The notes: generated by a model not told the origin, from the sequence alone. A stretch of 64,000 bases of DNA from Raillietiella orientalis (GCA_036172245.1 JAYWIR010000099.1:1-64000), one strand, 5' to 3'; numbered from the stretch's first letter, positions 3,001 to 54,574 are shown. Numbers and translations: made by a program.

Positions 3001-4610
3001 TATTTGGAACACCTTCGTGGCCCCCCTCCTCCGACCCCTTTTTTTTGTCTTAAACTCTCCCCATGCGGCCAAAGAGCGGGCAAAACGCCTGCTAAGGAAC
3101 GCTCTCTGGGGTCCTACGCGATCCAGGATTCTTCTGAAAGACCTCACTGCTCCACGTCGGGATGCTGGGCTTGGCATCCTGACGATGGAGAGAATCGGAC
3201 TGAAAGTGCAGTTCCGGATGCTCGCACTTTGTGCCGAGCTATTTTCTTCCCACCTGTGTGCGCCCGCGCGCATCCTCCTGAGGAGGTGTGCAGGCAGTGA
3301 AGGACTACTTTCTTTGGTGCCTGGCTTGCGCCACAGGAAACAGGGATTTGGCTATCCTTTGAGGAAAATCGCCACCCTATTGAAAGCCAGTACGTAGATT
3401 ACCTGCCGCCGAATGAACTATAATCCTTGGAAGCAGGAATCCATTGATTCGTGGGCTGCATTGTTAGGAATGAGCCGTGAAGATCTTCGCCCCTTGCGTC
3501 GATTCCAACCTTGGTCACTCCAAGATGTCATGAAGGACGAGATGAAGCTTTCCTCCTTGGCCGCGACCCCCCTTGTTGAAGCACTGTATGCCCTTGAGGC
3601 TCGAGATGACAGTAGCCAGCCGGCAAGTTGGGAGTTCTCCTACACCATTGCAGGAAGAACAAAACCAGTTGGCGCATGGACCACGAGCTAGCTTGCATAT
3701 GCGGCCACTCCTCGTGCTACACCAAAGGGGTTACTTCGGTGGGGAGAAGCTGTTTGTGTTGCCCCCGATGAACTTATAGTCCCTCCATGGTGTTTGGACG
3801 GTTCGGTGTTTCCCCTTGCATGGAAGCAAGACGTTTTGCTTTTCTTGCACTGGGGATTGCGCTACAACGAGCGGCGCCAACGAGTTTCCGGTGGGGTGGC
3901 TTCTCCCTACTGTGCCCGGTGCGGAGCGACGGAGTCATTCCCGCACCTTGTTATGGACAGCGGTGCCCTCCAGGAACTGTGAAGGAGGCTAGCAGCAGCT
4001 CTCCCGTCAACAGGAGACACCGCTGGAGAAGTGCTGCGACGGTTTTTCCAGACACAAGGACTTTCGATGGCTGCCACGATTTCCACTGTTGGTTGCATCC
4101 GCGCCATCGTCACGGTCCGAGACGTGCTGGAGAATACTGGACAGCAATGTTGTGTCACCAGGAAGGCAGCTGACTTTATCAGGTCGGCAGCTGGGTGGCG
4201 ACACTTATATGAAGACACAACGGAGGAGCTAACCGGTATCCATCGACGGATCAGCAACGGCTTAGAACGACGAAATCGGTGATCCGCGCTTATTTTATTT
4301 TTAATTGGTTTTTTTGTTCTCGCGTTCATTTCCCTATACGCTCCGCAGTGGTTTTGGTGCTGAAACTTTCGAGTTTCTTGGTGACTGCGAAGCGTCATAA
4401 GTTCCCTGGACCACTCCTCCAGTTTAAAAATTTTTTTTTTTTTTTGTTTTCTTTTTGTATTTCGACTCCATTGAGTCGTCCGTGTTCTGCTGTTTTCCTG
4501 GCCTGCGTGCCAGAAGTGAATCTCCGCTGCATGTTTTCAGAGTCGAGAGCTGGAAACAATTGTTTCCAGCTCCTTTATGTCAATAAACGTCCCAACGTGA
4601 CCGGGTGAAA
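1..4610 (+). mobile_element. L1/Tx1-like LINE, element 1 (5' end outside window)
   Basis: ORF1 tail ending at TAA 687-689, ORF2 689-4282, T-rich 3' UTR, AATAAA 4582-4587 and a degenerate terminal hairpin 4591-4605. Confidence 0.93.
689..4282 (+). pseudogene. Element 1 ORF2 (APE endonuclease, RT, zinc finger), disrupted by nonsense codons only
   Basis: ORFs starting at 677, 1550, 2126, 3413, 3794 and 4031 share one frame. Motifs SWDVNG, LLQE, NIYAP, GDFN, SDH; DLHKAFD, GIRQGDSFSP, YADE, KYLG; CARC..ESFPHL. Confidence 0.92.
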
Positions 4611-7600
4611 AATTTCAACGTTCGCCTGATACCAGATGATCAGAATTCCGAGCGTGACCTGGTCAGCGAGGTGTACATGGCGATGAACACCTGAAATATG
4701 TTAACCAGTGCACCGGCAATGGAAGACAGCATTGATTACGTGTTTCTTGACGAGCACCTATGCCCTCGCGTGGGCAGGCGCGGCAAGTAACCGTGCGAGC
4801 TGTCCGACCATCGCCGGATAGTTCTCGAGATCCATCCGCGCGACAGAAGCCCCCCTTCGTCAGCGTGGCGTCTCTCAGGAGACTGGAGGAAGCTCCTGGA
4901 CGTGGCGAGACATCTTCGCACGTTCATACGGAGATTTAGGCTGCGGAAACTTTAGGATTGGGACAGCTTGAAGCTGTCGGTTCAGGAGTTCTGCGACCAG
5001 TTACCTCTTTACCGCCTATCTACGGGTTTTGAAACCGTGGTTTGTAACGAACAACCATATCTGCAGGCCCGACGTTACACCAGGACATCCGACATCCGCA
5101 GGCTGGCGGAATACAAAGCGGCAGCCGAGACGCAAGCCTAGCAGGCCGGATCTGCCAGCTTGCAGGACGATCAGGGCCAGGAGCACTCGGCACCCGCCCA
5201 AATCCGCGGCCTGCTGTGGAGTTACTACTCCTCCCTGTATCCCAAAGCACCTCCGGAGAGGAACGTCTCACGACTCCTACTTCCGAAAGGCGCTCCAGCG
5301 ATCGGGGAGGACGAGAGAAAGACCCTCGACGAGCCTTTTACGATGGACGAGATCCTCTAGGCCATCGGAAAGCTCAAGAGGCTTAAGGCTCCAGGGGAGG
5401 ACGGCCTGCATGCAAAGTTTTACCAAACTTTAGGGACTGAGCTTACCCCCATGGTACAGCAAATCACCTTGCTAATACGCGAGACAGGTGACGTTCCCGC
5501 CTCGTTTCGTTGGGCAAAGGTGCGGCTCCTTCCTAAGGGAGGAGATCTGAGAAGCATGAACAACTGGCGTCCCATTACAATAGTGAACGCGAACGCCAAG
5601 TTGCCGGCTGAGGTCTGGGCAGAGCATCTGGGACGGGTTGCCAACATCTTTATCAGCCCGGTACAGACATACGCTGTTCCTGGGCGAAGCATGGAGGCAA
5701 ACCTGTTCCACGCTACCACCTGGCTAGAGCTCCAACAAGAAAGGAGCTTGGTGCACAGCCGGAATTCTGGTGCGTGCGCCGGCAAGGGGTCGAAAGGTCG
5801 GGTGAGGAAGGGAGCCCTTGCGGTCGCAGTCGACTTGCGGAAATCATTCGATTGCGTCGACCAGAATCTCCTTCTGGAGCTTCTGGAACGCTTGGGCTTC
5901 GCGGCCTCATTAGTGGCCTATCTGCGCTCCTGCTGGCGCGACGCGCTCATCAACGTTTTTTTCAGCGGGCAGACCGTGCACGGCGTGCTGGTGCGGAGTG
6001 GGATCCGGCAGGGAGACAGCCTGAGCCCTTGCTCTTCAGTACCTACTTTGAGTTGGTATTGAGAGCGTACAGGGAAACCATGGCACACCTGCGGCGCGAA
6101 TATCCCGGTACGCCCGCGGTGTCAGCATATGCGGACGACCTACTGCTGCTGCTCCCTATGTCCACCTCGGCATCGACGGTCGAGGAGTTCTTCTACCTGC
6201 TGCATCGGGGAACCAGACTTATGGTGAACAGGGCGAAGTCGTCCGTCATGCCAGTCGCAGCGGCGTGGGCAGGGCAGCAGGACTGGGTCCGTTTGGGGAT
6301 TCCCACGGTGAGGTACTTCAAGTACCTTGGTGTGCCGTTGGGGGACTATTCCCTACAGAAGCATGGTCCGGCTGCCTTCAGAAGGCTCAGGCGGTGATCG
6401 GCCCGTTCGAGGACGGCAGGTTCTACCTGGAGGAACGGGCCGCGGCGTGGAACGCGTTTGCGTCACCCCTCCTTCGCCCCTTGCTTTTTGTTTTCCCCCC
6501 CTCAGTTGAGTCAAAGAAGAGGACGAAGGACCTCCTGAGGATCGCCCTTTGGGGCAGAGGGAGGTCCCGAGTCCGTCTTTCGGACTTGTCAGCTCCTCGT
6601 CGGGATGGTGGTCTGGGCCTCCTGACGTTGGAGCGGATGGAGCTACAGCTCCAGTTCCGAGTTGTCGCCTTCATGGCAGAAAATCGGTGCACCCCTTGGT
6701 GCCTCCCTGCACGTCACCTCGTCGAGCGAGCCACCGGCAATGCGGGACTTTCGTCCTACTTTGCACTCCGAAACCCCATTTGCCACTGCGGACTTAAACT
6801 TCGGAGGGCGGCTATGCTCGTGAAAAACAACTCGGCGCGAATCCTCGTATGCCCCGCGAACGGTCCTGCCTGGCTGCAGGAAACCGTGCGCACGTGGGCG
6901 ATGATTCAGGAGCAGAGCCCGCAACACGAGCGAATAGCTCTGTTCGTGCCGCATGCCCACCGCACGCTCCGAGAAATCATCGAGGATCCCCGAAGGAGAG
7001 CGTAAGCACAAGGTACCTCCCTTGCTGCGGTACTGCCTACCCTACGGGAACATCTGGGCAGCGACGTCGCGGCACAATGGCAGGTTACTGTCAAGATTGA
7101 CAGCAGGGCAAAGAAGATCGGGGATTGGAGAACGGGTCAGCTCACCAACGTTGCGACCCCGAGGACCACCCCAATGGACTCTTGCACTGGGGAGAGCTAC
7201 TGGATGTTCCAGAGGAACATCTCGAGTGGCCCACGGTGCTCATGGACTCGCGCACCCTCCCCATAAAGTGGCAAAGTCGGCACTGCTGGTGTTGTATTGG
7301 GGGCTTCCTTGCAACGCCCGCCGACACCACTGGACGCGGGGGGGTGTCAAACCTAATTGTGTCAGGTGCGGGGAGAAGGAATACCTCCCCCACCTGTTAG
7401 TGGATTGTGTTGCCTTCCGTCCCTTGTGGGAACGCTTTGCCGCAGCCCTGGGGATCCCCGGAGGCAACCCCAGAGACGCTATGCGCCCCCTCTTCTTCCG
7501 TGACACCCTGCCTCCAGCGGCCTTGCTTTCAGCCCTGTGCTGCCTACGCGGGATCGTCGTGGCATGGAGCAAAGCGAAGGGAGGATCCAGCGACAGGGAT

Positions 7601-7937
7601 GCCGACGTGTATGCCGCCCGTTTCCTCAGGATGGCGACGCGATGGCCCCATCTGGAACCACACACGCAGAAACAGATTGCCGGCATCCTGCAGAGGATGA
7701 CGGACCCTCCCAGCAGACTGTAATCCCTTCCCGCTCCCTCCGTGATATATGTTTATTTTTTTGTTTTCTATTTGTTTCGTTCCCCCTCCCCTCTGCCGTT
7801 GAGGTCGACCGCGCCGGTCTGCGCACCGGTAGCCCGGCAAGCTATATCTTTCCAGGGCGTGGCTGGACTACTGGTCCAGTCACAGATTATATGGGTTCAT
7901 TCGAGAGAATAAACGTCCCGGCGCACCCGGGTTTCAA
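4611..7937 (+). mobile_element. L1/Tx1-like LINE, element 2 (starts inside the endonuclease domain, frameshifted)
   Basis: Begins at FNVRL (the GDFN motif). NWRPIT, GIRQGDSLSP, YADD and CVRC..HLLVDC follow; ORF2 stop at 7723; AATAAA 7908-7913; hairpin CCCGG-CGCAC-CCGGG 7917-7931. Confidence 0.92.
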
Positions 7938-9390
7938 GCGAAAATCTAGAGGGTGACGCCTCGCAGGAATTCGCGAAGATGTTCTTTCGCTCCAGACAGG
8001 CGTGTCCAGTCCCCTGGCATACGCCAATCCCTGGATGGCGGTACCTTGTCGCGCGGGCGCATCTCGAATAATATTTGGGAATGGTCCGACAGCGTCGATC
8101 CAATTGTTCCTGGTTTTTCGACCCGTGTGCACAGATCTTCGTCGAGGAAGACGTGGTGCACGCTGCTGACCATCCCGTGTATTTCTGTCAATAAGTTGCG
8201 CGCGCGCATGGCGACGCACAACACGTTGATCGCGTTCCCCTGCGCTATGGTCTGATCTGAGAGCAGGCGGACGTTGAAATTCCCAGCTATCAGATGCGCC
8301 TTTTGTACGTCCGCGTCCACCAGCCATTCGCGCTTCAAGGTTTACAGTAACGAGTTGCGCTGCTGGTATCCCTGTTTACCGCTAGGAGCGTAATCATTGG
8401 TGACGATGAGGTCGATCGAATCGGTCCATCTGAGAAACAGTTGGCCGATCCGTCCGTCGTCCCCAAAGCGCACGCCTTTCACGACCGCGTTAATGGCTGG
8501 CTTCAGAAAGAACGCGACCCCACAAGTGTTGCGGGCGCCGCATCATCAGTACAACCCCCCCCCCCGCGATCGTTTGCATCTCCTGCGCGTCTTTTGCGGT
8601 GATCACGTGGATCTCCTGCAAAAGCACCAGGTCGAAATCTCGCAAGGTGGCTGCTGTGTCTCATCTGTTTCCGTCGTCGCGCAGCCTGTTGACATTCCAA
8701 CTGTCCGCGCGGATCCGACGGCGACAGGCGAGTCCAGGTGTTATTCCTGGTAACCTGGTGGTTGGGCTTCCGCCACCTTTTGGGGCGGGTCCCTAAACGG
8801 TGTTGGCGTCTTGCCCACCAACTCCCCATCCTCCTTACGTGCCGACGTCTCCGGCTGCCCGTGCGAAGGGGGTGCTGCTCGTACCTGTTGGCCCACATCC
8901 ATTGGTGCGGGTGGTTCAGGTTCGGCGGTTTCAGAGGGCATTGCTGACCCCTGGTTACCCTCCTCCATTGGAGTCGCCTCCTCGTCGGCTTCCGCACGTG
9001 GGTGATGCCCAACTTGGGCTCCCACGCTGCCATCCACTGGTTCCTCCACCATTGCATCCTCCTCGCGCCGAGGCGGAATGCACCTTCGGGGCTTCGGGGA
9101 TTTTCGTCCAGCTTTCCTTAATGGTGCTTCCGCAGAGGAAGATACACTTCCGTCCTACCGGTCCGACTCACCTGCGGGGGCCATTTTAGACGCTGCCGGC
9201 CTACGCAATCCCTTTCGCGAAGGGTTCTCGCGTTCGGCAAGCGTTGCCGCAAGCTCCTGCGCGGCCTTCTCGAAGGCTGCGTCCTCGGTTTCGGCGAGTT
9301 TGTCACCCGACTGACCCTCTTCGCAAGCAGGGGGTGGGTTTTCGCGCGCATCCGTCGCGGCGGGAAAATCGATTGAAGCCGTATCGCCTC
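7938..9390 (-). mobile_element. Fragment C' (ORF1 C-terminus plus endonuclease), close copy of element C
   Basis: Reverse complement aligns closely with about 14326-15761 (e.g. MVEEPVDGSVGAQVGHHPRAEADEE; KREWLVDADV). Confidence 0.92.
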
Positions 9391-10133: not shown

Positions 10134-13127
10134 TGCCACCCGGATATGCCGGGGCATTTATTATTCTAATTTTTTACAAAAATTAGATAATTAAGTCTTT
10201 CAAAAGTTAATTGTGGGAAACACTTTGTTTTCCCACCTTGGTTGACGTGTCTGTTGCCGGTGCATAGACCGGTTAGGTCCATTCCCGAGGCGCATGGGAA
10301 GGGAAAACTGAAACAAAAACAAACAAAAAGAGAGATAACGGTGAGGGAAACAGTTGTATGGGGACAGGGGGGGGGGCAGGGAAGGGATCACTGAGCGCCT
10401 GGGTCGCTCCTCCTCATCCTGTTCAGGATGCAGTCAAGTTCTGTTTTAACTCTGAAAGGTAGACGCCACCTTGTCGCCGTCTCTAAAGAGATCGTCGTCC
10501 AGTGGATGGCGTCCCTGCATCTTGGGCCTCTTCTTCTGGCGTGCCAGCTTTGCACAATGCCGCGCACGCAGCAGAGGACTGCTAGAGACGCAGCGGGGCG
10601 CAGGCCGTCACCCAGAAAGAGGCGACGGTAAATTTCCTTAGGGTCGCCTACTGGAAGATGGAGGATTGGGGCGACTCTACTCCAGAGTCCATCCAAGGCG
10701 ACACACTCGAGGGTGAGATGTGGGAAGGTTCCTCTTTCTCCGCACTCGACACAGCGAGCATCCACATTTCTCAGTGTCCAGTAAGACAGGCGTGCTCTGC
10801 TTAACAGTACCCAGTGCAGAAATAGCAACGTCGTCTCCTGCCACTTCAACGGAAGTGTGCCGCAATCCCAAGACGCTGGGGGCCACTTCACCTCCTCCAA
10901 AGGTATTGCGAGCAGCTCTCCCCAGCGCGCAAGTCCGTGAGGCGGGACGCTCGGGGTGGCAGCGTCCGTGAGCTCTCGAGTCGTCCACGCCTTTAAAGGT
11001 TTTTTCCTGCCTCGCATGAGGCAGGACATTTCCCACGATGCCAGCTCGTTGCTGCTCCTAGTGTTTTTTAGGAAAGACAGAACGGGGGCAAGGGGGCTGA
11101 AAGAAGCCCATAGAAACTTCCGGGGCGTGTTGATAATCTCCTGCAGCGGCTGTCGAGCGTACGGTCCTCGTCGTAGGCAGTTGTATTCCGCCTCGCTCGT
11201 GTCGTTGATCTTAGCCCACGCGGAAGCTGACTGCTGAAGCCAGGCAGTGCAGCTCGCGGGGATGCAGGAGATCCAGGTATTCTCCCTCATCAGGGCGACC
11301 ATTTGGCGCAAATCAAGGCCACAGTTGGAGAGGCTGCGCTGGTAGGCCAGGAGGATCGAGGACAATCCTTCGCAGCCGATGGCTCTTCTGGCGAGGAGCC
11401 GTGCCGGATCGCACCATGGCGTCATCCATAAGCTAGCCGCAAGGGCTAACTTCCGAATTGTTGTCTGTAGTTGGATGCGCTCCAACGAAAGGAGGCCCAA
11501 GCCAACATCCCTGCGTGGAGCGCACAAGTCTTTCAATCGGACTCGCGACCTCGCTGTGCCCCAAAGGGAAGTCTTTAAGAGGGCTTTGGTCCGTCTCTGT
11601 ATGATGGGAGAAGCGGGGCAAACAATAAGTAAGATGCGAAGGAGGGGGGCCGCGAACGCGTTGCACACCGCGGCCCGCTGCTGCAAGTAAAACTTGCTGT
11701 TCCGGAACGGGCCGATCGCCAACTCCACCTTTTGGAGACGGTCGGACCAGGCTTCTGCAACGCAGAAGTCCCCCAACAGAACGCCAAGGTACTTGAAGCA
11801 CCTGCCCGTGGGGATCCCCAAGCGGATCCAGTCCGGCCGTCCGGCCCACTCCGTTTTGTTAAAAAGTAGTGGTGATGTTGGAACGATGGAAGATTTCTCT
11901 CTCTTCACCTCGAGGCCCGTCCCGCGGCGCAGCAACTCAAAGAAATCTTGGAGCGCCTACGCCAGGGTGGACCCGGGGAGCAGGAGCAGAAGGTCGTCGG
12001 CGTAGGCCGACACGGCATGCGTGCCGGGACACGAGCTTGGCAGGGTTGCCAGAGTCTCGCTGTATGCCCTCAGCACCAGTTCGAAGTAGATGCTGAAGAG
12101 CATGGGGCTCAGACTGTCACCCTGCCTTATGCTACGCCGAACCGGCACGCCGTACACGTGCCGGCCGCTTAAAGAGATGTTTATTAGAGCGAAGCGCCAG
12201 CAGGAGCGCAGGTAAGCCCGGAAGACGGCCGGGAATCCCAAGCGTTCCAGGAGCTCCAGAAGCAGTTCCTGGTCGACGCAATCGAACGCTTTACGCAGAT
12301 CGACTGCGACCGCAAGGGCACCGGGCGCAACTCTTCCATGAAGGGCGTCCCCTCCCTGGTCAGAGGAGAATCCAGAATTCTCTTGACCTCCCTGGTCTTT
12401 GCTTTGTTGCAACTGCCACCATGTACTGGCGAGGAACAGGTTGGCCTCCATGCTTCGTCCGGGAACAGCGTATGTCTGCTCCGGACTCACCACGGATTCC
12501 GCCACCCGTCCCAGTCGCTCAGCCCAAAGCTTGGCAAGCAACTTCGCATCCGCATTCACTACTGTGATGGGACGCCAGTTGCCTACGTTGCGATTGTCTC
12601 CTCCTTTCGGCAGGAGACGTACTCTAGCTGACCGGAACGATTTGGGGACGTCCCGTTGTTCTCGGATCAGCATGCATAGCCGATGCACCAGGGGGACCAG
12701 CTCCGCCACGAAGCCTTGGTAGAACTCCGCGGGCAGACCGTCTTCCCCTGGTGCTTTCCTCTTTCGGAGCTTTGCGATGGCGGAGACGATCTCCGCCATT
12801 GAGAAAGGCTCCGCGAGTTCATGTGCCTGCTCCTCCTGCAGCGCGGGGGCACCTTGCGGCAGCAAGCGCTGCGCCACGGCGTTCTCTGTTGTTCTACGCG
12901 CGTACAAGGAAGAGTAAGAGTCCCGCAGGATGCGGTTTATTCTCGCCGGAGCTGAGCATTCTTGGCCTTGGGCGTCCAGCAGGCTGGGCGACCCGGATTG
13001 CCAGGTCTGTCGCTCAGCCCCAGCTTTATACTCCGCCAGCCGTCGAACGTCGGGAGTGCTAGAGTAGAGACTGGCGTGGTGGTATGCCCAGTCGTTCCTC
13101 AGCCCTTCGCCGAAAGCCGGTGTAGGT

Positions 13128-13149: not shown

Positions 13150-13223
13150 CCCAACGCCTGTCTGGGAAGCAACCGGAGTTTTTTTAGTGTAGTCAGGTGT
13201 TAAGTGTGGGTCATCGGTGTCCG

Positions 13224-14975
13224 ATGGCAGCCGTGCCAGAGGACACTGCGATGGATGTGGTTGTTGGGGAGGCAAGTCCTACCACAGGACCTACATCTAT
13301 GGGGGCAATAGTCCCTGGAACGTCTTCGCAGCCGGCGAAGACTTGGAGTGAAATGGTCGCCGCCCCCAGTGCGGAGGCCATGGCCAAGCAAGCCGCCTAT
13401 CGGGCCTCTGAATACAAGCCATCGCTTGTATACAAGGTAGGCCCTTTGTTTGAAGGAAACACGGCGCGCTCTTTCAGCAGAGCGCTACAAAATGCTAATG
13501 TCCGTGAGGAAGATCTGGACGGTCTGTGCGTGCTCAGCGGGGCACAGCGGGTTGAGCTGGTGTGCAAGAGCATCAGCCTAGCCGATCGCCTTATAAATAC
13601 CCCGCTGATCATGGACGGCCGTAAGATCTTCCCGGTGTCAATGGACCACTCGGTAGTGGTCCACTTGACAGGAATATCCAAGCGCATGACGCGCACTGCC
13701 GTAAAAGCAGAATTAAGTAAGTACGGGGACGTACACGCGCTGTGGCCGAAGCCCACAATCTTTGAGGGCTACGGACGCCACTTCGGGGGCCTCGCTGCGG
13801 CACGCGTAACCCCAAAATACGAAGCGAAGCTACCCCACAAACTTGAGGTCGCGGGAGAACCAGTAGACCTCTGGTATGCTGGCAAGCCACGGTATTGCGG
13901 CTACTGCGATGCGGTCGGACACATCCGTAAGAGGTGCCCGAACATCGTATGCTACTTGTGCGGGGAGAAGGGACACGTCCGTCGCGTGTGCCCTAAACGC
14001 CCCACCCCAATTTCCACGGCCGCCAAAAAGGCGCAAGCGAAACGCGCGGGGAAAGAAAAATTAGAAAACCGTGAAACTGGCCAAGAAAAGCTGCCAATAA
14101 CCCAAGCTTCAAGCGCGGCATCGGAGAAAAATCTTCCCGAAACCGCAGAGGGTGAACAGGGCTGGCAGCTAGTCAAAGTCAAAAAAGAAAAAAAGGACAA
14201 GCATGTCCCGAAGAAAGGAGAGAAGGCGGCGGCCGGAACAAAAGCTCAATCCGTGTCGCGCGTAAAAACTCTCCGAGAATGCACGGTTACGCTGGAGCGC
14301 ATTGACGTTCCCGCCGACACCACCGGAGGCGATACGGCTTCGATCGATTTTCCCGCCGCGACGAATGCGCGCGAAAACCCACCCCCCGTTTGCGAAGAGG
14401 GTCAGCCGGACGACAAAATCGCCGAAACCAAGGACGTAGCCTTCGAGAAGGCCGCCGAGGAGCTTGCGGCAACGCTTGCCGAACGCGAGAACCCTTCGCG
14501 AAAGGGGTTGCGTAGGCCGGCAGCGGCTAAATTGGCCCCCGCAGGTGAGTCGGACCGGGAGGCCGGAAGTGCATCCGCCTCTGCGGAAGCACCACCAAGG
14601 AAAGCGGGGCGAAAATCCCAGAAACCCCGAAGGTGCATTGCGCCTCCGCGCGAAGGAAATCCAATGGTGGAGGAACCAGTGGATGGCAGCGTGGGAGCCC
14701 AAGTCGGGCATCACCCACGTGCGGAAGCCGACGAGGAGGCGACTCCAATGGAGGAGGGTAACCAGGGGTCAGCAATGCCCTCTGAAACCGCCGAACCTGA
14801 ACCACCCGCAGCAATGGATGTGGGCCAACAGGTACGAGCAACACCCCCTTCGCACGAGCAGCCGGAGACGTCGGCACGAAAGAAGGATGAGGAGTTGGTG
14901 GGCAAGACGCCAACCCTGTCCAGCGACCCGCCCCAAAAGGTGGCGGGAGCTCCACCGCCAGGTTCCCAGGAATAA
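13224..14975 (+). CDS. Element C ORF1, nucleic-acid-binding protein (583 aa) with two CCHC zinc knuckles
   Basis: Uninterrupted from ATG 13224 to TAA 14975. CGYCDAVGHIRKRC and CYLCGEKGHVRRVC follow an RRM-like region; basic and low-complexity tail. Confidence 0.88.
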   Translation: MAAVPEDTAMDVVVGEASPTTGPTSMGAIVPGTSSQPAKTWSEMVAAPSAEAMAKQAAYRASEYKPSLVYKVGPLFEGNTARSFSRALQNANVREEDLDGLCVLSGAQRVELVCKSISLADRLINTPLIMDGRKIFPVSMDHSVVVHLTGISKRMTRTAVKAELSKYGDVHALWPKPTIFEGYGRHFGGLAAARVTPKYEAKLPHKLEVAGEPVDLWYAGKPRYCGYCDAVGHIRKRCPNIVCYLCGEKGHVRRVCPKRPTPISTAAKKAQAKRAGKEKLENRETGQEKLPITQASSAASEKNLPETAEGEQGWQLVKVKKEKKDKHVPKKGEKAAAGTKAQSVSRVKTLRECTVTLERIDVPADTTGGDTASIDFPAATNARENPPPVCEEGQPDDKIAETKDVAFEKAAEELAATLAERENPSRKGLRRPAAAKLAPAGESDREAGSASASAEAPPRKAGRKSQKPRRCIAPPREGNPMVEEPVDGSVGAQVGHHPRAEADEEATPMEEGNQGSAMPSETAEPEPPAAMDVGQQVRATPPSHEQPETSARKKDEELVGKTPTLSSDPPQKVAGAPPPGSQE

Positions 14976-17565
14976 AACCTGGACTCGCATGTCGCCGTCG
15001 GATCCGCGCGGCCAGTTGGAATGTTAACGGGCTGCGCGACGACGGAAACAGACGAGATACAGCCGCCACCTTGCGAGATTTCGACCTGGTACTTTTGCAG
15101 GAGATCCACGTTATCACCGCAAAAGACGCCCAGGAGATCGAAACGATTGCGGGAGGGCGGTTGTACTGGCGATGCGGCGCCCGCAACACTTGTGGGGTCG
15201 CGTTCTTCCTAAAGCCAGCCATTAACGCGGCCGTGAAGGGCGTGCGCTTTGGGGACGACGGACGGATCGGCCAACTGATTCTCAGATGGTCCGATTCGAT
15301 CGACCACATCGTCACCAATGTGTACGCTCCTAGCGGTAAACAGGGATACCAGCAGCGCAACGCGTTACTGGAAACCTTGAAGCGCGAATGGCTGGTGGAC
15401 GCGGACGTGCGAAAGGCGCATCTCATAGCAGGGGATTCCAACGTCCGTCTGCTCTCAGATCAGCCCGGAGCACAGGGTAACGCGATCAACGAGTTGTGCG
15501 CCGCCATGCGCGCGCGCAACTTGTTGACAGAAATATGCGGGATGGTCAGCAGCGTGGACCACGTCTTCCTCGACGAAGACCTGTGCACACGGGTCGGAAA
15601 ACGAGGGACACTTGGATCGACGCTGTCGGACCATTCCCGGTTAGTATTCGAGATGCGCTCGCGCGACAAGGGACCGCCATCCAGGGATTGGCGTATGCCA
15701 GGGGACTGGACGCGCCTGTCAGGAGCGAAAGAACATCTTCGCGAATTCCTGCGAGGCGTCAGCTCTTGCTGGCGGAACGCGATAATCTCAATTACTTTCA
15801 GTGGACAAAAGGTGTATGGCGTGCCGGTACGGCGGGGCATAAGGCAGGGCGACAGCCTCAGCCCCCTGCTTTTTAGCACCTACGCTGAGTTGGTGCTGAA
15901 AGCGTACAGGGTGACTTTGGCCCCCTTGCCGAGCTCGTGCCCCGGCACGCCAGCCGTAGCGGCGTATGCCGACGATCTTCTGCTCCTCTTACCTATGTCC
16001 ACCCCGGCTAAGGCGGTCGGAGGTTTCTTCGACCTGTTTAGCCGTGGGGCCGGATTACAGGTTAACAGGGCGAAGTCGTCAGTGTTGCCAGTTGCAGCGA
16101 CGTGGGCAGGGCAGCAGGACTGGGTCCGTCTGGGTATCCCTACGGTGAGGTGCATCAAGTACCTCGGTGTGCCGTTGGGGGACTTCTCCCCTGAGGAAGC
16201 GTGGTCCAGCTGCCTCCAAAAAGTCGAGACGGCGATCGGCCCGTTCCTGGAAGGCAAGTTTCACTTGCCGCAACGGGCCGCGGTTTGGAAGGCCTTCGCG
16301 GCCCCCATCCTCCGCTCCTTGCTTTTTGTTTGCCCGCCCCCGTGGAATCGAAAAAGCGGACTAAGGACCTCCTCCGCATAGCTCTTTGGGGCAAGGGGAG
16401 GCGCCGATTCCCTTTGAAGGACTTGTGCGCTCCGCGTCGGGACGGCGGTCTCAGCATCCTGACGCTGGAGCGCGTGGAAATCCAGCTGCGATGGCGGACC
16501 CTCGCCATCGCAGCGAAGATGTGGAGCACCGCTTGGTGCATTCCGGCCCGCCTCCTGGCCAGGCGTGTGTCTCGCTGCGAAGGACTCGCATCGTTTCTTC
16601 TGTGCCCTGGCCGGAAGATTCGAAGATGCGGTCTAATGCTCGGCCGCATGGCAACCCTGGCAAAGGAGAACTACTGGATGGTTTGTGGCCCTGCCAACTC
16701 CTCCGTTTGGCTGGAAGAGACTGCTGGCACCTGGGCTAAGCAGAACCAAAGGTGCGAAGACCGGATGAACTGTCTGCGAGTCGGCTTATACGCCCGTCGC
16801 ACTCTCCGTGAAATTCTTGAATTTCCACCGAGTTGCACGTGGGCGGAAGGCACACCCCTTGTTACGGCGATGCCCTTCCTCCAAAGGGCGCTTCACGGAA
16901 GCCAGAAGCCAAGGTGGCAAGTCTGCTGCAGTATCGCAGGCAGAGAGAAGATGATGAGCGGCTGGACCATGGGAGAGTTGACAGATGCAACGACCCCTAG
17001 TCTCCAGCCGCGTGGATTAAGAAGATGGGGCGAGATGCTCGGCATTCGATTGGATAACCTGAGGTGGCCCCCGGTTGTACTTGAATCCAGGATTCTCCCC
17101 CTGAAGTGGCAAGAATCGGCGCTTCTGTGGCTGCATTGGGGTCTACTCTGCAACGCGCGCCGCTTCCACTGGACGCGGGGAAGAGTAAATCCTGCGTGTG
17201 CCAGGTGTGGGGAGCGGGAGTCGCTCCCCCACCTCTTAGTTGAATGCCCTGCCGTCCAGATTCTTTGGGATCGTCTGAAAACGGCCCTCCGGATACCGGA
17301 TGGCGGCAATGTTGAATGTATCTTCAGTCTTGTCTTCGTGCGGGACGCTCTCAGTCCAGCCGCAGCCCTGGCAGCACTTTGCTGCATTCGTGGTATCGTG
17401 GCGGCGTGGAGTGATGCCGAAGATGAAGACTGCATCGTGAGGGACGTCATCGAGTATGCTTTGCGCTTCCTGCAGAGAGCTACCCGATGGCCCCATCTAG
17501 GAAAGCTGAAAATGGAACTAGAAGGCATCCTGCAAAGGATGGGCGCTCCCAGCAGTTTTCTGTGA
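14972..17565 (+). pseudogene. Element C ORF2: endonuclease fused in frame to the RT C-half, frameshift near 16340
   Basis: SWNVNG..LLQE..SDH..HLREFLRGV runs directly into SSCWRNA..GIRQGDSLSP..YADD; CARC..HLLVEC near the end. Confidence 0.88.
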
Positions 17566-19174
17566 TCCCTTCCCGGCCCTCCAAACTTTTTTTTTGTGGT
17601 TTGTTCTTCTATTTTATTTTATTTTTGTTTTTTCCCCGATCCCCCTCCACTGCCGAGGAGAGCCACACCGGTCTGCGTCCCGGTGTCCCTTCAGTTCCGG
17701 CATTCCGTGGCCGTCAGTGGGGCCTTGTACCACGTTCTGTATTGACCGTTGAAATGTTTTTGATAAACGTCCCGGCGTATCCGGGTGGCATCGCCGAAAC
17801 CTGGAGGGAGACGGTTCACGGGAAACTCGTCGCAGAACTCGCGGACTGAGCTCTCCAAATCGTCCCAGTCCGCGAGCGACTGCAGATGGAAGCCTTGCAG
17901 GAACGAGCGAAGATGTTGCGCTGCTCCTGCAAGGCGCAACCAGTCCCCTGGCAAACGCCACGCTTTGGAGGGTGGACCTCTACCGCGCTGGTGTATTTCT
18001 AGCGCGAGCTGGGGATGGTCGGAAAGTTCGGATGGCACTGCCCCTCGATTTCCCACCCGCGAACACAGGTGGTTGTCGAGGAACATGTGGTCGATCCTCG
18101 TGTCCGTCCCGGCGTCACCGGCCAACAAGTTGCGCGAGTGCATGGCAGCGCACATCTCGTAGACCAGCTGTGCAAGAATGTCGGGCGCACCTGCCAGCAG
18201 GCGGACGTTAAAGTCCCCGGAAATGAAGTGCGCCTTTCGCATGTCTGCTTGGGCGAGCCAATCTCGTCGCAGGCCTTCAAAAAACGCAGTGCGTTCCCCG
18301 CGCCTGTGGGTCGTGCCGGGCGCGTACACGTTGGTCACGACGAGGTCGATCGCGTCGGACCACTTGGCAACAAGCTGCCCGATTTGAGCTTCCCCGTCGA
18401 AGTGCACGTCGCGCAGCGCGTTAACGACGGCTGGCTTCAGCATGAAAGCCACACCGCGGGTGCGGTCTCTCCCGTTCTTGTATATGAGCCGCCCGCTTGC
18501 GATCCGTTCGATTTCCTGAGCCTCCCCTGCGTGGAGAACGTGCGTCTCCTGCAGAAGCGCCAGGTCGAAGTCCCGCAGGCTGGCGGCCACTTCTCTCCTC
18601 TTGCCGTCGTCGCGCATCCCGTTGACGTTCCAACAGATTACGCGCAGTCGCCGGCAGGAGGAGAGTCCACGCGTTGGTGTGTTTATTGTGCTTGCTTACC
18701 GCCCTCCGCCTGCTATTCAGCAGGCGGGAGTTGTGTATCCATTGCGACGGGCTGTTGCTCGCAAGGAGGCGGTCCGTTGGTGGTTGTTGTGGTGGTTGGA
18801 GGATCCTGCTTGGCCAGGGACGTCTCCGGCGAGGAGTCGCGAGACCTCGCGGACATCGCCTCCCCGTCGTCGTGGTCCGACCGCATTTCCAAATCCGCCG
18901 GTGAAGGTGCGGAGCGCCGCGAGTTGCCTACCTTGCGGCCCGCTTTGCGCTTCGGGAGAGCGACAGCCGGAGCGTTGCCGGCTTCGGCTTCGGACTCGGA
19001 AGTCTCCGGTCCATTCGCCTCAGCCGGACGCCTCAAGGCCTTCTTCTGGGCCTTGGGAGGCTGCTGGAGCATGGCTGCCAACTATTCCGCCGCCTTGTTG
19101 AAGTCCCGGTCGTCGCTGCTCACGCTTGTCTCGCGACTTTGTCGCGGCGTCGGCGTTCGCGCGGCGGCGGGTTG

Positions 19175-22925: not shown

Positions 22926-22940
22926 ACCAAGAACGATGAA

Positions 22941-36389: not shown

Positions 36390-36402
36390 GTCTTTTCCTT
36401 TT

Positions 36403-39909: not shown

Positions 39910-41510
39910 AAAGCAGAACTCTAGTGCAACCCAAGGACCCCCAAGTGCAAAATGTTTGTATTGAGTGAATGAGAGTGCGAATGTAAATATTGTATTTTTA
40001 TAGAAAAATAAACTTACCCCACCCCTTGTGGGACTTGTGGAAAATTAGCGATCGCGAGAGGCTCTGCCTCTTCCAGATCGGAGGGTTCGCGCGTTGCCTT
40101 TGCAAGCGTCGGGGGCACTGCTGTAGCGGTTGTGCTCGCCCTAGCAGTTTCTTCCTTGGCCGCAGTAGGCGCTGCGTCCGCGCGCGAGGACTGCGGGTTT
40201 GCCGGCTGTTTCTTCGCGGCACTCGGTGCCTGGGGCACCTTGGCCACGGTAGCTTCAGACGCGCGGTGTTCTTTGCCCGCGGGTGCGTTTTTCCCGTATC
40301 GGGCGAACGACCGCATTCCGCGCCGCTCGTCGAGGCCTTGGTAAGAGGCTTCGCGGTAGTGATGCCGACAGTAGGAGGCTTTTTGACCTTGGGCACAATG
40401 TCTCCTGCATTCAACAATTGTCTGCGAGGTCTCGTAGAAAGGTCGCATTCTTCGCGAGCTTCCTTCGGGTAGATAGCCGGAGGCTTAGCCGACCTAAGCC
40501 GCGACGAGTTTTTTTGTGTTTTTCACCCGTTCTTTGTGGGGGCGAGAAACAGTTTTCTGCACGTGCGTGGGCGCGGTTTTCGCAACGCTTTTCGGAGCTT
40601 TGATGTTTCTTTCTCTCGATTCGCTGCGATTATTCCGCGATGCGGAACGCGATTCGTTCCTGCGCTTTTCGTTTTTTAAAAGGAGCTCCGGGCACGTCCC
40701 CTTAGTGTGCCCGTGCTCGTGGCAGTGACGGCAAGCGGCCGAGGGACACTCCGTAATGCGGTGACCCTCCTGCCCGCATTCCGCGCATACACGGGTTTGC
40801 CCGGCAAACCACAGGCGGACGGTCATCCCATCCACCTGCAGTCGCGTGGGCATTGCCCGGCGATCCGCCATCGTCACTCGCGCCTGCGCGAGCCCGCTGT
40901 GGTGGTCTTCGAACCCTTCAGCAGGGTTTGGCAGCCTCCAAAGCGCGTGGACGGTAGCGAATTTTTCAAGGGCCTCCACGACCTGGCGGTCCGAAAGCCC
41001 CTTACACACTCCACTCAGCCGGACAACGAACGACTGATCCGCAGTGGTGAGGAGTATTTCCTGCCCACGAATGAGCAGTCGCGTGTGCAGCAAACGCTGC
41101 GTAAGGAGAGCGTCCTTACTGGACACCTTCCAGTAGCCGCACCCACTCATGGGCATGATGGACTCCAGTTGGCCTTTTTGAACTCCAATCCGTTGGAGTT
41201 CCTGGCCAAACTCGCGTCCAACCTGCTCAGGCATAAGGACACTTATCTTATACCTGAGTGCAGGCGTGTAGCCATTTGCTACATACGCCTGAAGCTCAGG
41301 GCTGTCGGGCGAAGGTCCCATCGTAGCCGCGAGGGCAGCGACCCGGGCGAATGTCCTCGCCGTCGGCGAGGACAGAGGCTTTTTGCTAGCAGCCGAAGCA
41401 GCCATCTCAGGAGCAGGTGGCGTTCCCTTCTTGCGGCTGATGTTCTTCTTTGCTCCCATTGCAGCACAGAAGCACAGCAGAACAAAAACACACAAGAGCC
41501 AATCTACCGC

Positions 41511-41532
41511 GGAGCGACGCAAAAGCACGTCC
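41511..41532 (-). promoter_or_regulatory. Candidate internal promoter motif of LINE E
   Basis: GGACGTGCTTTTGCGTCGCTCC at +12 from the TSD. Confidence 0.55.
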
Positions 41533-43993
41533 GTACGCGACCGTCGCTGATGCGTGAGACGGGAGATGTTCCCCCTTCTTTCCGCTCTGCAAAGGTGCCA
41601 CTCCTGCCGAAAGGCGGTGATTTGCGCCACCTCAGCAACTGGCGCCCGATTACATTGGTGAATTCGGACGTCAAGTTGTTCTCCAGGCTATGGGTCGCGC
41701 GCCTGGGGAGAATCGTGGAGTCCTTGGTAAGTCCGGAGCAGACGTATGCTGTTCCGGGGCGGTCCATGGACGCGAATCTCTTCTTCGCGCGAACATGGTT
41801 CGAGTTGCAGCAGCGCGTGGCGCAGCAGAGCCAGGCAGCCGAAATCGCGGCAGCCAAAGGTAAGCGGAGGTGTTCAAGGCACGATGGAACGCCGGGAGCC
41901 TTAGCGGTCGCCGTCGATCTCTGCAAAGCATTCGACAGCGTAAACCAGCACCTCCTTCTGGAGCTTCTAAGACGCCTAGGCCTCCCGATGCACCTCATCG
42001 CCTACTTGCGCTCCTGCTGGCGCCATGCGTTATGCTGTATCTCTTTCAGCGGGCGCCACGTGTACGGCATTCCCATACGGCGGGGTATCAGGCAGGGAGA
42101 CAGCTTAAGCCCCCTGCTCTTCAGCATCTTCTTTGAGTTGGTGCTGAGGGCGTACAGGGTGACGCTGGCCAACCTGCCGAGCTCCTGCCCGGGAACACCG
42201 GCCGTAGCCGCCTATGCTGACGACCTTCTCCTGCTGCTGCTCATGTCCACCCCGGCGTCCAGGCTCGAGGACTTCTTCGAGCTCATTCGTCGGGGAGCGG
42301 GCCTGAGCGTCAACAGGACGAAATCAACCGTTGTACCGGTTGGCTCTACGTGGGAGGGGCAGTCCGACTGGATCCGCCTGGGGATCCCCACGGGTAGGTG
42401 CTTGAAGTACCTCGGCGTTCCCTTGGGCGCCTTCTGTCCAGCAGAAGCGTGGTCGGACTGCCTTCACAAGGCCGAGACTGCTCTGGGCCCGTTCCAAAGC
42501 GGCAGGTTTCTCCTGTCGGAACGGGCCTTCGTGTGGAACATTTCCGTTGCCCCCCTCCTCCGTGCCCTCTTTTTTGTTTGTCCGCCTCCCTACTCGGCTA
42601 AGCGCCGGGCGCAACGCCTGTTGCGTGACGCCCTGTGGGGACCGGTGAGGTCCAGGATACGCCTGAAGGACTTGGCGGCTCCTCGGCGGGATGCAGGATT
42701 GGGCATCCTGACGCTGGAGCGGATCGGACTGCTAGTGCAGTTCCGCATGCTGGCACTTTGTGCGCAGCTCTGGACTACTCCCTGGTGTGCTCCAGCGCGG
42801 CTGCTGCTGCGGCGCTGCACGGGTGGCGACGGACTACGTTCGTTGCATCTGCGCACGGAGCGCGCCCTGAGAGGATTCGGCTTCCCTTTGAAGCAGCTCG
42901 CCACGCTTCTGGGAAAGCATGAGTGGATCTCCTGCCGGCCGATGAACTTCAACGCCTGGAGGCAGGAAGCCTTATCGTCCTGGGCAGCGCAACAGGATGT
43001 GTCCCGTTTGGAACTACGTTGCGTGAAACTTTCCCCATACTGTCCAGTGGGGGAGGTGCTGGAAGACCAGGACCAGTGGACACTCCTAGCCGCTACGCCA
43101 CTCGCCGAAGCACTGTGTGCACTGATGGTGCGAGATGACAGTGACCTGCCGGCGAGGTGGGAGATCACTTGCGAAATCGCAGGCGAAACCCTACTGCTGG
43201 GCGGCTGGAGGAATTGCGAAGTGGCAGACGCTGCCACACCTCGCCTTCGTGCAAAGGGACTTCTCCGGTGGAGTGAGCTCCTCGAGGTGCTCACCGATGA
43301 ACTTGTGGTACCTTCTGCGTGTTTGGACGCGGCTCTCTTCCCCCTTCGGTGGAAGCAGGACGCTTTTCTGCTGGTGCATTGGGGTTTGTACTGCAACCAG
43401 CGGGCGCACCTGATTTCCGGAGGAGTTGCGTCCCCGAACTGTGCCAAATTGGGAGCGGTGGAATCGCTTCCGCATTTGCTGTTGGAGTGCGGTGCCCTCC
43501 AGGATCTGTGGCAGCGGCTGTCTTCAGCGCTCTCGCATCCCGGACACACCGCACTGGATTGGATGCGCCGCTTCTTCACGCGTGGCTGCCTATCTCTTGG
43601 GGCGGTCGTCGCAATCATCTGCTGCGTCCCCGCCACTGTCAGGGCCCGCCACGTATTGCAGATGTGAGCAGTCCCAACATCGGTCCCCGACACCGCAGCC
43701 TGCAACCTGCAAATGGCTGCCGGGTGGTCACATCTTGGATCAGAAGTAAGGACGGAGATCGGTGGCATTCACCGCCGGTTCTTGGAATAGGAACGGCTAA
43801 ACTGCAGACCCCTATCCCCACCCTCCTACCATATTTATTTATTTATTGTCCCCCCCTGCCGTTCCGAACTCTCAGTATTTGTCCGACCTGCGCGTCGGGA
43901 AACCCTTCCTCTCAACTTCTGCTCCGTTGGCCTGGGAACTGTGTTCCCAGTTGATTTCTCATCAATAAACGTCCCGGCGCAACCGGGCTACAA

Positions 43994-44540: not shown

Positions 44541-44544
44541 CTGT

Positions 44545-45095: not shown

Positions 45096-45144
45096 AGGAA
45101 ACTTATCTTTGCTCGCTTCACCTTTCACCACCGCCTAAACGTAA

Positions 45145-45468
45145 GCAGAGTTCAAAAAGTTCCCAAATATCATCTTCTGGTGCTTAGGAGCAGAGGGGAT
45201 GTGGGGTCCTGGAGCAATCAAACGGGAGTTCCTGACTGGACCCGATCGTTTCATGGGCGAGAAAACCGCTAGTCCTGTAGCAAGAAAGGTCTTCTACCCC
45301 CTGGGAAGCATAGAAAAGTAGAAGCAAAGAAACTTGCTTCTTGGATGAGGACTGCGTTTTGCGTCGGAGGTTGTCACGTATGATCCACCGTCGCGGCACT
45401 CAAAGGTGCAAAGCTTCATAATATCGCAGTTGTCACGAGCACAGGCAGCAAGGAGCGATGTTTCTGTC
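45145..45468 (+). repeat. About 320-bp repeat with an inverted copy at 54837-55161; possibly a BEL/Pao pol fragment
   Basis: Direct reverse-complement match with scattered mismatches. TTCTTGGATGAGGACTGCGTTTTGCGTCGGAGG resembles the Pao FLDEDGxLRVGGR motif with a frameshift. Confidence 0.8.
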
Positions 45469-51999: not shown

Positions 52000-54574
52000 T
52001 CTCATTCTAGTCCACGCTTCTGTAAAGATGCCTCCGCTGCAGCAGCGGCCAACGAATCCCCAGCGGATGCAAAAATGCGGGTTTATATAGCCCGACGCTA
52101 TAAACCCGCAATCCGCTACAAGGTAAGGCTCCTACCTATGACGTGACAGAGTTTCTCAAGCTCACGAGGGTCAGCGTTTGCGAGAAAGACCCGGGGAATC
52201 CCGCATCATGCTGGCGGGGAACGAAGGCTGAGAGGTCATCCGCAAAAGTGCAGAACTCATCCAACACCTTCTTCGCACGCTGTTGAGCATCGCACGGTGT
52301 TCCCTTCCGCGGAGGATCCGTCCTTTGTCCATTACTTGAAGGGCATCCCGTTCCGTGTGTCAGACCGCGTCGTTGCGGTCGGACGCACGGAACGGATCGC
52401 GCCACCGTCGATACCTTCTGAAGAAAAGGCCAAAAATAGATCTGCAGGCGCAGTCCAGCATGCTGGCACCGTTTGCTGAGCCGTGCATCTCTCCGTGATG
52501 CACGCCTGCGCGCCTCATCCTAAGGCGTTTGCGTTGGCAGCCTTTGTCGCTGCTTCTGCGCTGGCGATACGGCATGCAGGGATTTGGATTCCCGCTGAGA
52601 CCAATTGCCTCGCACCTGGACGCCTATCCTTCGACCTCCTGCCGCCCAATGAACTCAGATGGGTGGCGGCAGGAGGTGTTTGTCTCCTGGGCTACTACAG
52701 TGGGAGAGAGCTCAGACGTACTTCGTCGCTGCGGTCCTTCCACAACCGCATCGAAGGCTCTGTGACTGCTGCGGTCTCCGCGTGTGGCACCATCACGCGC
52801 TGCGGCTTCGAATACCCCAAACTGAATCTCAGCAGTGCGTCGGGGTTGGAGTTCCTCCCGCAAGGTGACGCTGGTTGGCCGGCATTCATTCGGGTGCGGC
52901 GCCAGCCGTAGAGGTTGACTCCAGATGCTCCTGATGAGGGCCGGGACAATGGGAGTCGATCTGCGGGTCCTTCCAGTAAGTGGGAGTGGAGAGGAGTGGG
53001 AGTTGCCCTCAGATTGTGAACGAACTGACCTCCCATTCAGGGGGGGGACTCCGCGTCGAACTGATTAAGTCGATGTGTCGCTACCTCTCCAGAGAGTGCA
53101 GAGAAGCGAGTCGCTCATTTCGAGGAAGCAGAGCCCTTCAGAAAAGTTTGGAAGCGTCCCTTCGGGGTTCTCTTCAGATGAGTAAGCAGGAGTGACTCCC
53201 TTAAGGTTTCCCACAGGAGAAGAAATTCCTGATAGAGAATCCTTTCCGAGTTCCCTCTGAAGAAGAAAAAATGTAGCAGATCCACTCGGGGTACCTCCGG
53301 AGATAATAAGGAAGGAGGATTCCCTTCGAAGTTTTCTGCAGAGACAACCAGGGTGGAAGTGATCTCCATTCCGGGAATCCTTCCCCGAACGTGAGAGGAA
53401 CGGTCTCCGAGCCTTCCTGGATTCACACGGCGGTCTCCTCTCGGGGTACTCACTATCTTGAAGAATTACACGTACCTTCGGGTGGCATGAAACAGTGTTA
53501 AGGAGCAGCGAAGACAGAAAAGAAAGATTTCCATCATCCTGAATATGTTTTGCAGGACATGAAAAGGACTGCTGTATAACCCCTCGCCTCTTGCCTCAGC
53601 GCTGTCTGTTCCAAGGGCAAGTGATGACAGCTGTCTACCGGCGAGGTGAGAGTTGTCCTGCACCATTGCAGCAAGAACAAAACTGCTGGGAGGTAGAGAG
53701 ATAAAGGAGCTAGTGGACTCCGTCAATCCACTTCAAAGGGAGGAGGACTGCTTCGATGGAGCGAGCTGTTCAGAGTGGCCTCCGAAGGACTCGTTGTCCC
53801 TCGTCTGCGCATAAGCTCGTGTTCCCGCCGAAACGAAAACCCAACATCCTGCTGTTCCTGGATTGGGGTTTCCAGTGCAGCCAGCGAAGGGACAGGATTT
53901 CCGAAAACGTTGCGTCTCCTGACTGCTTGAAGTGCGGGACTACTAAACCGTTCTCTCACCTCTCGTCAGACTGCGGTGCCCTCCAGGAACTTTGCCCCAG
54001 GCTGAACTCAGCACTTCTGAGGTCCGGAGACACTGCGACGGACTTGCTGCGGCGATTCTTCGTGACAGGTGGAGCCGCGACAGGCGCCGTGGTTGCGAAG
54101 ACGCGTTGCATCCGTGCCATAGTTACGGCCGCCATTTGCTGGAGACAGAGACGCAGCGAACAGAGGCCGCCAGCGTCGCATTGTCCACATGAGGACGGAA
54201 GAAGTCAACAAGAAGATTCAAGATATTCTGCGCTGCCTCCAAAAGAAACACACGGACATTTCCAGTGACCCTTGACCCATTCGAAATTTTATACAATTGT
54301 TTACTGCCCACTCCAGACCGTTTTGGACTTTCCCCGGTGTTTCGTGAAGGAACGAAAAAAGCCAGAGATTCTTCCCCTTTCAATTTATTTTTGTTTTTGT
54401 TTTTTGTCCCTTATTTGACGATCGGGAAACTGGTCGGGCGTGTCGGTAAACCAACCCCTTGAACTTCCGTTGTAAATTTTCCATAAGGACATTGCTGTTT
54501 CGACAATGCATTTTCTGAATTTTAGAATTATTTTGTTCATGTAGAATAAACGCCCTAACGCCACCGGGTGCAAA
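52000..54574 (+). mobile_element. Old internally deleted LINE J (ORF1 N-terminus joined to ORF2 C-terminus) carrying a foreign insert
   Basis: YIARRYKPAIRYKV and DPSFVHYLKG match E ORF1; QGFGFPLR..SCRPMN and LLFLDWGFQC..ASPDCLKC match ORF2; AATAAA 54545-54550 plus degenerate hairpin. Confidence 0.75.

Follow-up and report, generated by a model that had tools for sequence, protein, structure and literature searches.

An AATAAA-Plus-Hairpin Block at the 3' Ends of Poly(A)-less, L1-Like LINEs in Raillietiella orientalis

Introduction

How does a reverse transcriptase of the L1 type find the end of its template when that end carries no poly(A) tail? The question is raised by a 64,000-nucleotide (nt) stretch of DNA from Raillietiella orientalis (GCA_036172245.1, JAYWIR010000099.1:1-64000), referred to here as the window, positions 1-44,000 of which are a nest of non-LTR (long terminal repeat) retrotransposon copies lying on both strands, with a G+C content of about 57%. 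Ten copies of L1-like long interspersed nuclear elements (LINEs) in the window end in the same short block, in which AATAAA is followed by 3 nt and then by a hairpin with a 5-bp stem and a 5-nt loop. In mammalian L1, copies have a poly(A) tail, and insertion takes place at T-rich nicks that pair with poly(A). The evidence presented here comes from the window and from one DNA sequencing run that matches it in part (X1; word share, 0.12), and the papers cited by accession number are drawn on in excerpt.

In stringent-type LINEs of the L2 clade, retrotransposition needs a 3' stem-loop that is bound by the protein of open reading frame 2 (ORF2), and in UnaL2, ZfL2-1, and ZfL2-2 the binding region lies in ORF2 between the endonuclease and the reverse transcriptase (RT) (PMC4176376). 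How L1-type RTs choose their templates, and whether the "relaxed" mode arose from hairpin-dependent "stringent" recognition, is an open question (PMC3472496, PMC4176376). An AAUAAA-bearing, poly(A)-less lineage would supply a compact 25-nt element for testing template recognition, and a block that marks the exact 3' ends of elements also helps genome annotation.

A conserved block at LINE 3' ends

The stem pattern CCCGG-N5-CCGGG has six exact matches in the window against 0.12 expected by chance, and none of 100 shuffled sequences reached six. When up to three mismatches were allowed, the complete motif AATAAA-N3-CCCGG-N5-CCGGG gave 11 matches against 0.51 expected, ten of them at LINE 3' ends. 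The eleventh (21910, plus strand, three mismatches) falls within sequence that codes for ORF2 on the other strand and was taken as a chance match; with it set aside, the block was found only at LINE 3' ends. All ten blocks stand some 230 to 320 nt downstream of an ORF2 C-terminus, and the spacer between AATAAA and the hairpin is 3 nt in every copy, while the loop sequences differ from copy to copy. AATAAA itself is perfect in eight copies and six of the stems are perfect. An earlier sequence-only reading of this DNA had reported ten such hairpins, six of them with perfect and four with substituted stems, together with two one-base variants of AATAAA and element ends 5 to 7 nt past the hairpin that carried 1 to 5 A; each of these observations was borne out, the coordinates of all ten sites included, the hairpin pattern being far above chance. 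The tails consist of 3 to 4 nt and then 1 to 5 A, with possibly no A in one copy (E17762, at 17790).

The six copies with perfect stems are E7908 (7908 to 7937, plus strand; hairpin at 7917-7931; tail TTTCAA), E10162 (10132 to 10162, minus strand; AATAAA at 10157-10162 and hairpin at 10139-10153; tail TGGCAAA), E17762 (17762 to 17790, plus strand; GATAAA in place of AATAAA; hairpin at 17771-17785; tail TGGCA), E19204 (19175 to 19204, minus strand; hairpin at 19181-19195; tail TGTGAA), E27755 (27725 to 27755, minus strand; AATGAA at 27750-27755; hairpin at 27732-27746; tail TGAGAAA), and E43964 (43964 to 43994, plus strand; hairpin at 43973-43987; tail CTACAAA). Substituted stems are carried by E4582 (4582 to 4612, plus strand), with AATAAA at 4582-4587, a hairpin at 4591-4605 whose stem is broken by a 5' arm reading CCCAA, and the tail TGAAAAA running to 4612; by E25442 (25442 to 25472, plus strand), with a decayed hairpin at 25451-25465 and the tail TGGCAAA; by E29875 (29846 to 29875, minus strand), with AATAAA at 29870-29875, a hairpin at 29852-29866 that holds one U-G pair, and the tail TTCAAA ending at 29846; and by E54545 (54545 to 54574, plus strand), with a hairpin at 54554-54568 broken by the 5' arm CCTAA and the tail TGCAAA.

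A covariance model built from the ten copies and searched over the 64-kb window returned the ten training copies and one weak match at 56875-56908 on the minus strand (18.1 bits, E = 0.17). This match is a candidate for a heavily decayed 3' module, with a T-rich and then a C-rich tract upstream, as in the LINEs' own 3' untranslated regions (UTRs), and no ORF2 homology upstream. It could be a chance match, a very old copy, or a nonautonomous element.

Local alignment scores of the last 700 nt place the copies in two deep clades. The first comprises E7908, E17762, E10162, and E19204, along with E25442 and E27755, each of which has about 93% DNA identity to a member of the E10162 group; the second comprises E4582, E29875, E43964, and E54545. 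The flanking DNA of E10162 and E27755 (both on the minus strand) is 85% identical across the junction, so this pair represents one insertion that was later duplicated, and the main family therefore records at most nine insertion events. The sequence-only reading had overcounted the independence of the copies.

Identity was compared among eight subfamily representatives (28 pairs), the block being defined as the 25 nt from AATAAA to one base past the hairpin. Mean pairwise identity is 80% in this terminal block and 55% over the last 500 nt of ORF2, whereas three 60-nt UTR segments upstream of the block reach 48 to 50%, against 47 to 52% for shuffled sequence. A 3' terminus conserved far beyond the rest of the element across diverged lineages, as is characteristic of stringent-type LINEs, was therefore found. 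The contrast between block and UTR is the strongest evidence that the block has a function, and it supports the interpretation that L1-like LINEs without poly(A) tails have, precisely at their 3' ends, a cis-element under selection. A block without function might instead be common to the copies through ancestry, gene conversion among their 3' ends, or segmental duplication within the nest. One pair of copies is indeed a duplicated insertion, and the junctions of E7908 and E17762 lie at homologous target positions, possibly through an old duplication. Such explanations are very hard to reconcile with a block at 80% identity inside UTRs that have diverged to shuffle level, with flanks that differ for at least seven junctions, and with the depth of the clades, and we consider them highly improbable.

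Exact 3' ends and priming

The end of one main-family element can be fixed by its target-site duplication. E29875 is a full-length element (29846 to 41543, minus strand; about 6.0 kb without a nested insertion) flanked by a 12-bp duplication at 29834-29845 and 41544-41555, which was recovered both as a direct repeat and by a 12-mer search. A single X1 contig passes from 29833 straight to 41544, 12 of its letters matching either side, and is read as a site without the insertion, possibly a paralogous one. From the duplication and this contig, the element ends in its hairpin plus TTCAAA with no poly(A), a fourth A being ambiguous with the duplication. Together with a nested element of a distant family (34335 to 40045, plus strand; described below), two copies have target-site duplications, and these end 6 to 13 nt past the hairpin with 3 to 4 A. 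The junction of E17762 could be set to within about 1 nt against an uninterrupted paralogue, which leaves the tail TGGCA. One subfamily inserted independently at E10162 and at E25442, as their different flanks show, and both copies have the tail TGGCAAA; erosion of long A-tails is disfavored because the same three A are unlikely to have been reached twice.

Primer strands at the two duplication-fixed junctions end in ...GCGT (E29875) and ...GCTA (the distant family), and those at E10162 and E25442, where the junctions were set by eye against paralogues, end in ...GATG and ...CACG. None of these four ends is oligo-T, so that priming by annealing to poly(A), the L1 mode, is unlikely. For the other eight main-family copies, a search over 30 kb brought up no convincing target-site duplication, and X1, most of whose loose contig ends were unlisted, was of no help in viewing main-family 3' ends at other places.

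Some further observations concern the target sites. The junctions of E7908 (7932-7960) and E17762 (17786-17815) lie at homologous positions, antisense to two other LINE copies and just past their APE endonuclease domain, and an uninterrupted version of this site is present at about 22100. The shared position could be a preferred target within the elements' own sequence or the trace of an old duplication. Two fragments spanning ORF1 and APE (13188-15761, plus strand, and 9424-7954, minus strand) are 92% identical and break at the same base. The exact 12-mer that follows the E17762 tail recurs 3.3 kb upstream inside ORF1; the pair 14418-14429 and 17790-17801 was not counted as a target-site duplication, the 12-mer being native to ORF1 in a second copy. 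Strict insertion into one specific target, a mark of the Tx1 clade, is disfavored in this small sample, since the flanks of the ten 3' junctions differ and the junctions lie at different places in other LINE copies; a preference may exist.

Start of reverse transcription or end of the RNA

It is directly observed that the block is conserved, that the elements stop at exact DNA termini and lack poly(A), and that their nick sites are not rich in T. The reading of them that we prefer, at a probability of roughly one half, is that the block is a stringent-type 3' module that fixes the start of reverse transcription through binding of the structured RNA end by ORF2. AAUAAA, 3 nt, the hairpin with its 5-bp stem and 5-nt loop, and a U would form the terminal cis-element of L1-like LINE RNAs. 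The ORF2 protein would bind this structured end, probably together with a second hairpin farther upstream (HP1; see below), and target-primed reverse transcription would begin at a fixed point about 5 to 7 nt past the terminal hairpin. Given a fixed start point, a poly(A) tail or read-through RNA beyond it would stay uncopied. A module of this kind would explain the uniform tail-less ends, the primers that are not T-rich, and the fixed spacing.

As a processing signal, AAUAAA would probably bring the RNA to an end near the same place, because its spacing is canonical: it ends 22 nt (main family) or 28 nt (distant family) ahead of the A-run of the tail, and a cleavage and polyadenylation signal typically lies 10 to 30 nt upstream of the RNA end, although the canonical signal may not be this organism's. 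The same distances suit an alternative in which the block only forms or protects the RNA 3' end, with ORF2 recognizing nothing specific and copying from a real, nonadenylated end. AAUAAA might direct cleavage just past the hairpin, or the hairpin might direct poly(A)-independent cleavage a few nucleotides downstream and shield the RNA from exonucleases, in the manner of replication-dependent histone mRNAs. Histone mRNA is a poly(A)-less RNA that ends a few nucleotides past a short hairpin, as the LINE RNA would on this reading, about 5 nt past it compared with the 5 to 7 nt seen at the element ends. The A-run is preceded by C in six of the ten copies, giving the ...CA found at many cleavage sites, and, since a retroelement cannot carry a downstream element beyond its own end, a helpful upstream structure would presumably be useful to it.

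Other features fit end formation poorly. Cleavage sites are usually ragged and often lie in flanking DNA, whereas neither variable ends nor short transductions were seen at the junctions that could be fixed. A polyadenylated RNA would, moreover, still need some means of keeping its tail out of the copy. The histone stem-loop has a 6-bp stem, a 4-nt U-rich loop, and its own (SLBP) consensus, and it requires a downstream element, whereas the G+C-rich hairpin in the window has a 5-bp stem and a 5-nt loop, follows AAUAAA, and is unrelated to it in sequence. The conserved HP1 is also left unexplained. We therefore regard a block that acts in end formation only as rather unlikely. The roles in ORF2 recognition and in 3'-end formation may coexist, and DNA alone cannot separate them. 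The sequence-only reading had offered these two functions as alternatives; what stands of its proposal is a selected terminal cis-element of poly(A)-less LINEs, without a choice between them.

Hairpin structure and covariation

Intact terminal hairpins have a folding free energy of about -7 kcal/mol, and RNAalifold, applied to an unsupervised MAFFT alignment of the ten 3' UTRs, predicted exactly two helices, HP1 and the terminal hairpin. Covariation, named by the sequence-only reading as a check on its hairpin, is thin in the terminal stem: once the distant family is added, pairing extends to 89% of cells, and values as high as those observed arise in 9 of 500 shuffles. The check thus gave two compensatory pairs in one distant family and no stem covariation in the main family.

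HP1, which the sequence-only reading had missed, lies 81 to 116 nt upstream of AATAAA and has a 5-bp stem with the loop CTGCGY. It is represented in E7908 at 7814-7829 (plus strand) and in other copies at 4498-4513, 17668-17683, 25327-25342, and 43883-43898 on the plus strand and at 10257-10272, 19281-19295, and 27856-27871 on the minus strand; it is intact in 8 of the 10 copies and degenerate in E29875 and E54545. Ninety-one percent of its cells are paired, three of its five pairs have changed on both sides, and its covariation score was reached by 1 of 500 shuffles. Judged by these alignments, covariation is clearer in HP1 than in the terminal hairpin.

All ten UTRs have, about 120 to 180 nt upstream of AATAAA, a T-rich tract and then a C-rich tract just before HP1, an order that is kept although the sequences are unalignable. 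Between HP1 and AATAAA, five of the ten copies have a middle hairpin with a perfect stem of 8 to 11 bp. We do not claim it as a shared element, the interval beating shuffles (z <= -2.4) in only three of ten. Folds of the whole 3' UTR have z scores of -2.2 or lower in 7 of 11 copies.

Several findings weigh against a structured end bound by ORF2. The terminal stem is invariant to compensatory change within the main family, and both compensatory pairs (two of five) come from the one distant-family element. The covariance model gives that element's module no more than 11.2 bits (E = 5), and its resemblance to the main-family module could be due to chance, with a likelihood of roughly a few percent. 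E4582 and E54545, which belong to one clade, carry the same uncompensated GG-to-AA change in the 5' arm (4594-4595 and 54557-54558); if an active ancestor passed it on to them, an intact 5-bp stem is not a strict requirement. When the 3' UTR is folded as a whole at minimum energy, the terminal hairpin forms in only 5 of 11 copies; in 3 of the 11 the UTR folds do not improve on shuffles, and in a fourth they reach only z = -1.2. The covariance model found no partner short interspersed nuclear element (SINE) with the same 3' tail in the 64-kb window. Finally, sequence conservation alone fits a sequence-specific site equally well. As a separate observation, E4582 and E54545 can still pair in a weaker, outward-shifted stem of CGYCC with GGGTG.

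The last of these points leads to an alternative in which the block is a base-specific site and not a structure. The palindromic half-sites CCCGG and CCGGG could be recognized, in duplex DNA or in RNA, by a protein of the host or of the element, or they could serve as a cDNA signal in second-strand synthesis or end joining. A stem that does not vary across two deep clades while its loop varies would be expected of such a site, as would a palindrome that is identical on both strands. The distant family, in contrast, keeps the pairing and the geometry and not the bases, and the fixed distance of the block from the RNA end and from AAUAAA suits a role at the RNA level. Two decayed copies also have sense-strand U-G pairs that would be C-A mismatches on the other strand, a weak point in the same direction. 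Taken together, we judge a base-specific site improbable and keep to the structured module recognized by ORF2.

A distant family with a U4 head

The distant family is represented by one LINE (34335 to 40045, plus strand) nested inside E29875, with a 15-bp duplication on its two sides (34320-34334 and 40046-40060) and an RT that is 29 to 36% identical in amino acids to that of the main family. Its 3' module (40007 to 40045, plus strand) consists of AATAAA at 40007-40012, a 5-nt spacer, a hairpin at 40018-40032 with the arms CCCAC and GTGGG around the loop CCCTT, and a 13-nt tail ending in AAAAT. The 5-bp stem and 5-nt loop geometry is kept, and pairs 4 and 5 are changed on both sides. One X1 contig breaks at 40045, the last base of the element. 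The likeness to the main-family module, as far as sequence comparison goes, is suggestive.

A complete U4 small nuclear RNA is present at 34333-34470 (RF00015, 90.5 bits, model positions 1-138), with its Sm site, and because it lies inside the 15-bp target-site duplication it is the 5' head of the distant element. In X1 contigs the 3' end of the element (39897 or 40045) continues into U4 sequence (34371-34374), as would be expected if the element formed head-to-tail arrays, and X1 depth is 28 to 76 over the distant element, compared with 0.5 to 24 over other elements. Some Tx1 families have 5' ends derived from U1 or U2 (Kojima 2015, PMC4494074); the head here is U4, which does not appear as a head in the excerpted text of that paper, and no fixed target was seen.

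With both families in view, a broader proposal can be made, tentatively and as one more likely wrong than right. A lineage of the L1 superfamily may have fused a working poly(A) signal and a hairpin in one module, with the hairpin and not the tail setting the point at which ORF2 starts reverse transcription, so that T-rich nicks would be dispensable and no copy would ever include the tail. The module would be old enough to be common, with compensatory stem changes, to two families with about 30% RT identity. If this is true, the L1 lineage would have in it a living intermediate form, whose template recognition lies between "stringent" and "relaxed."

Comparison with known systems

Like the elements in the window, eel UnaL2 and zebrafish ZfL2-1 and ZfL2-2 have a short conserved stem-loop near the 3' end and no poly(A). 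UnaL2-type ends carry short tandem repeats for slippage, such as TGTAA (PMC3747384), whereas the elements in the window have no repeat and only 5 to 7 nt past the hairpin. They further differ from UnaL2 and ZfL2 in having AAUAAA 3 nt before the hairpin and L1-like proteins, and ORF2 binding is in their case inferred. Mammalian L1 ORF2p shares with them the layout of APE, RT, and a C-terminal cysteine-rich motif, as well as the presence of two ORFs. Unlike mammalian L1, the elements in the window have tails of 0 to 5 A and four readable primer ends that are not T-rich.

The sequence-only reading had started from the premise that L1-type elements usually depend on poly(A), which is too broad. 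Poly(A) repeats end 224 of 233 flowering-plant L1-clade families, and no 3' repeat is present in 9 of those 233 or in 5 of 15 green-algal families (PMC3472496). Conserved 3' hairpins in L1-clade LINEs are likewise already known: in the monocot "1a" L1 lineage (LINE1-1_ZM), the last 45 nt or so form a hairpin and show a divergence of 0.144 versus 0.570 elsewhere (Ohshima 2012, PMC3472496). The stem of the monocot hairpin varies with compensatory changes while its loop and flanking CGAG are conserved (PMC3472496), whereas in the window the stem is invariant, no poly(A) follows, AAUAAA abuts the hairpin, and no SINE partner was found. What differs here from these published hairpins is thus the AAUAAA that abuts the hairpin, the invariant stem, the lack of a following poly(A) or repeat, and the presence of the same layout in two remote families. 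A literature search, with Repbase and Dfam outside its scope, found no description of an AATAAA-plus-hairpin end without poly(A) in L1 or Tx1 elements.

Domain content and neighboring features

The elements have two ORFs, ORF1 and ORF2, and DNA identity between the LINE copies of the nest ranges from 65 to 93%. Searches with tblastn gave the order APE and then RT in ORF2, and PF03372 (APE endonuclease) and PF00078 (reverse transcriptase) scored above their curated cutoffs in several copies. PF13966 (zf-RVT) was found at the ORF2 C-terminus of one copy with 29.6 bits against a cutoff of 27.5, and below the cutoff in two others; the zinc knuckle PF00098 is present in ORF1 at 13188-14975 and 34482-35801. 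Both domain features of the L1 superfamily were thus found, APE followed by RT in ORF2 and a C-terminal cysteine-rich motif together with a zinc-knuckle ORF1. The closest solved structure to the LINE ORF2 is human LINE-1 ORF2p (E = 8e-19). By this layout and the best structure match, the copies are L1-like, and they may belong to either L1 or Tx1.

Database relatives are few. One metagenome fragment in the protein databases is 60% identical to the LINE copies and stops short of the 3' end, the rest being at most 31% identical, and a protein atlas search returned generic RT/zf-RVT clusters only. Five aligned ORF2 C-termini, used as the query of a profile search, brought up no relative among metagenome, genome, or viral contigs, and among sequencing runs only the DNA run X1, and no RNA run, was listed as matching. 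An exact-pattern scan of metagenome contigs gave 44 loci, none with ORF2 homology; these mostly resemble bacterial terminator hairpins, many with the longer stem GCCCCGG...CCGGGGC.

Two features in the right half of the window are of other kinds. Inverted repeats of 340 nt at 45130-45468 and 54837-55176 are 94.7% identical, lack the LINE 3' module, and form the highest-identity repeat pair in that half. An open frame at 63165-63866 (plus strand) encodes a piggyBac-type transposase domain (PF13843, E = 2e-45) and lies in surroundings of lower G+C content (39 to 41%).

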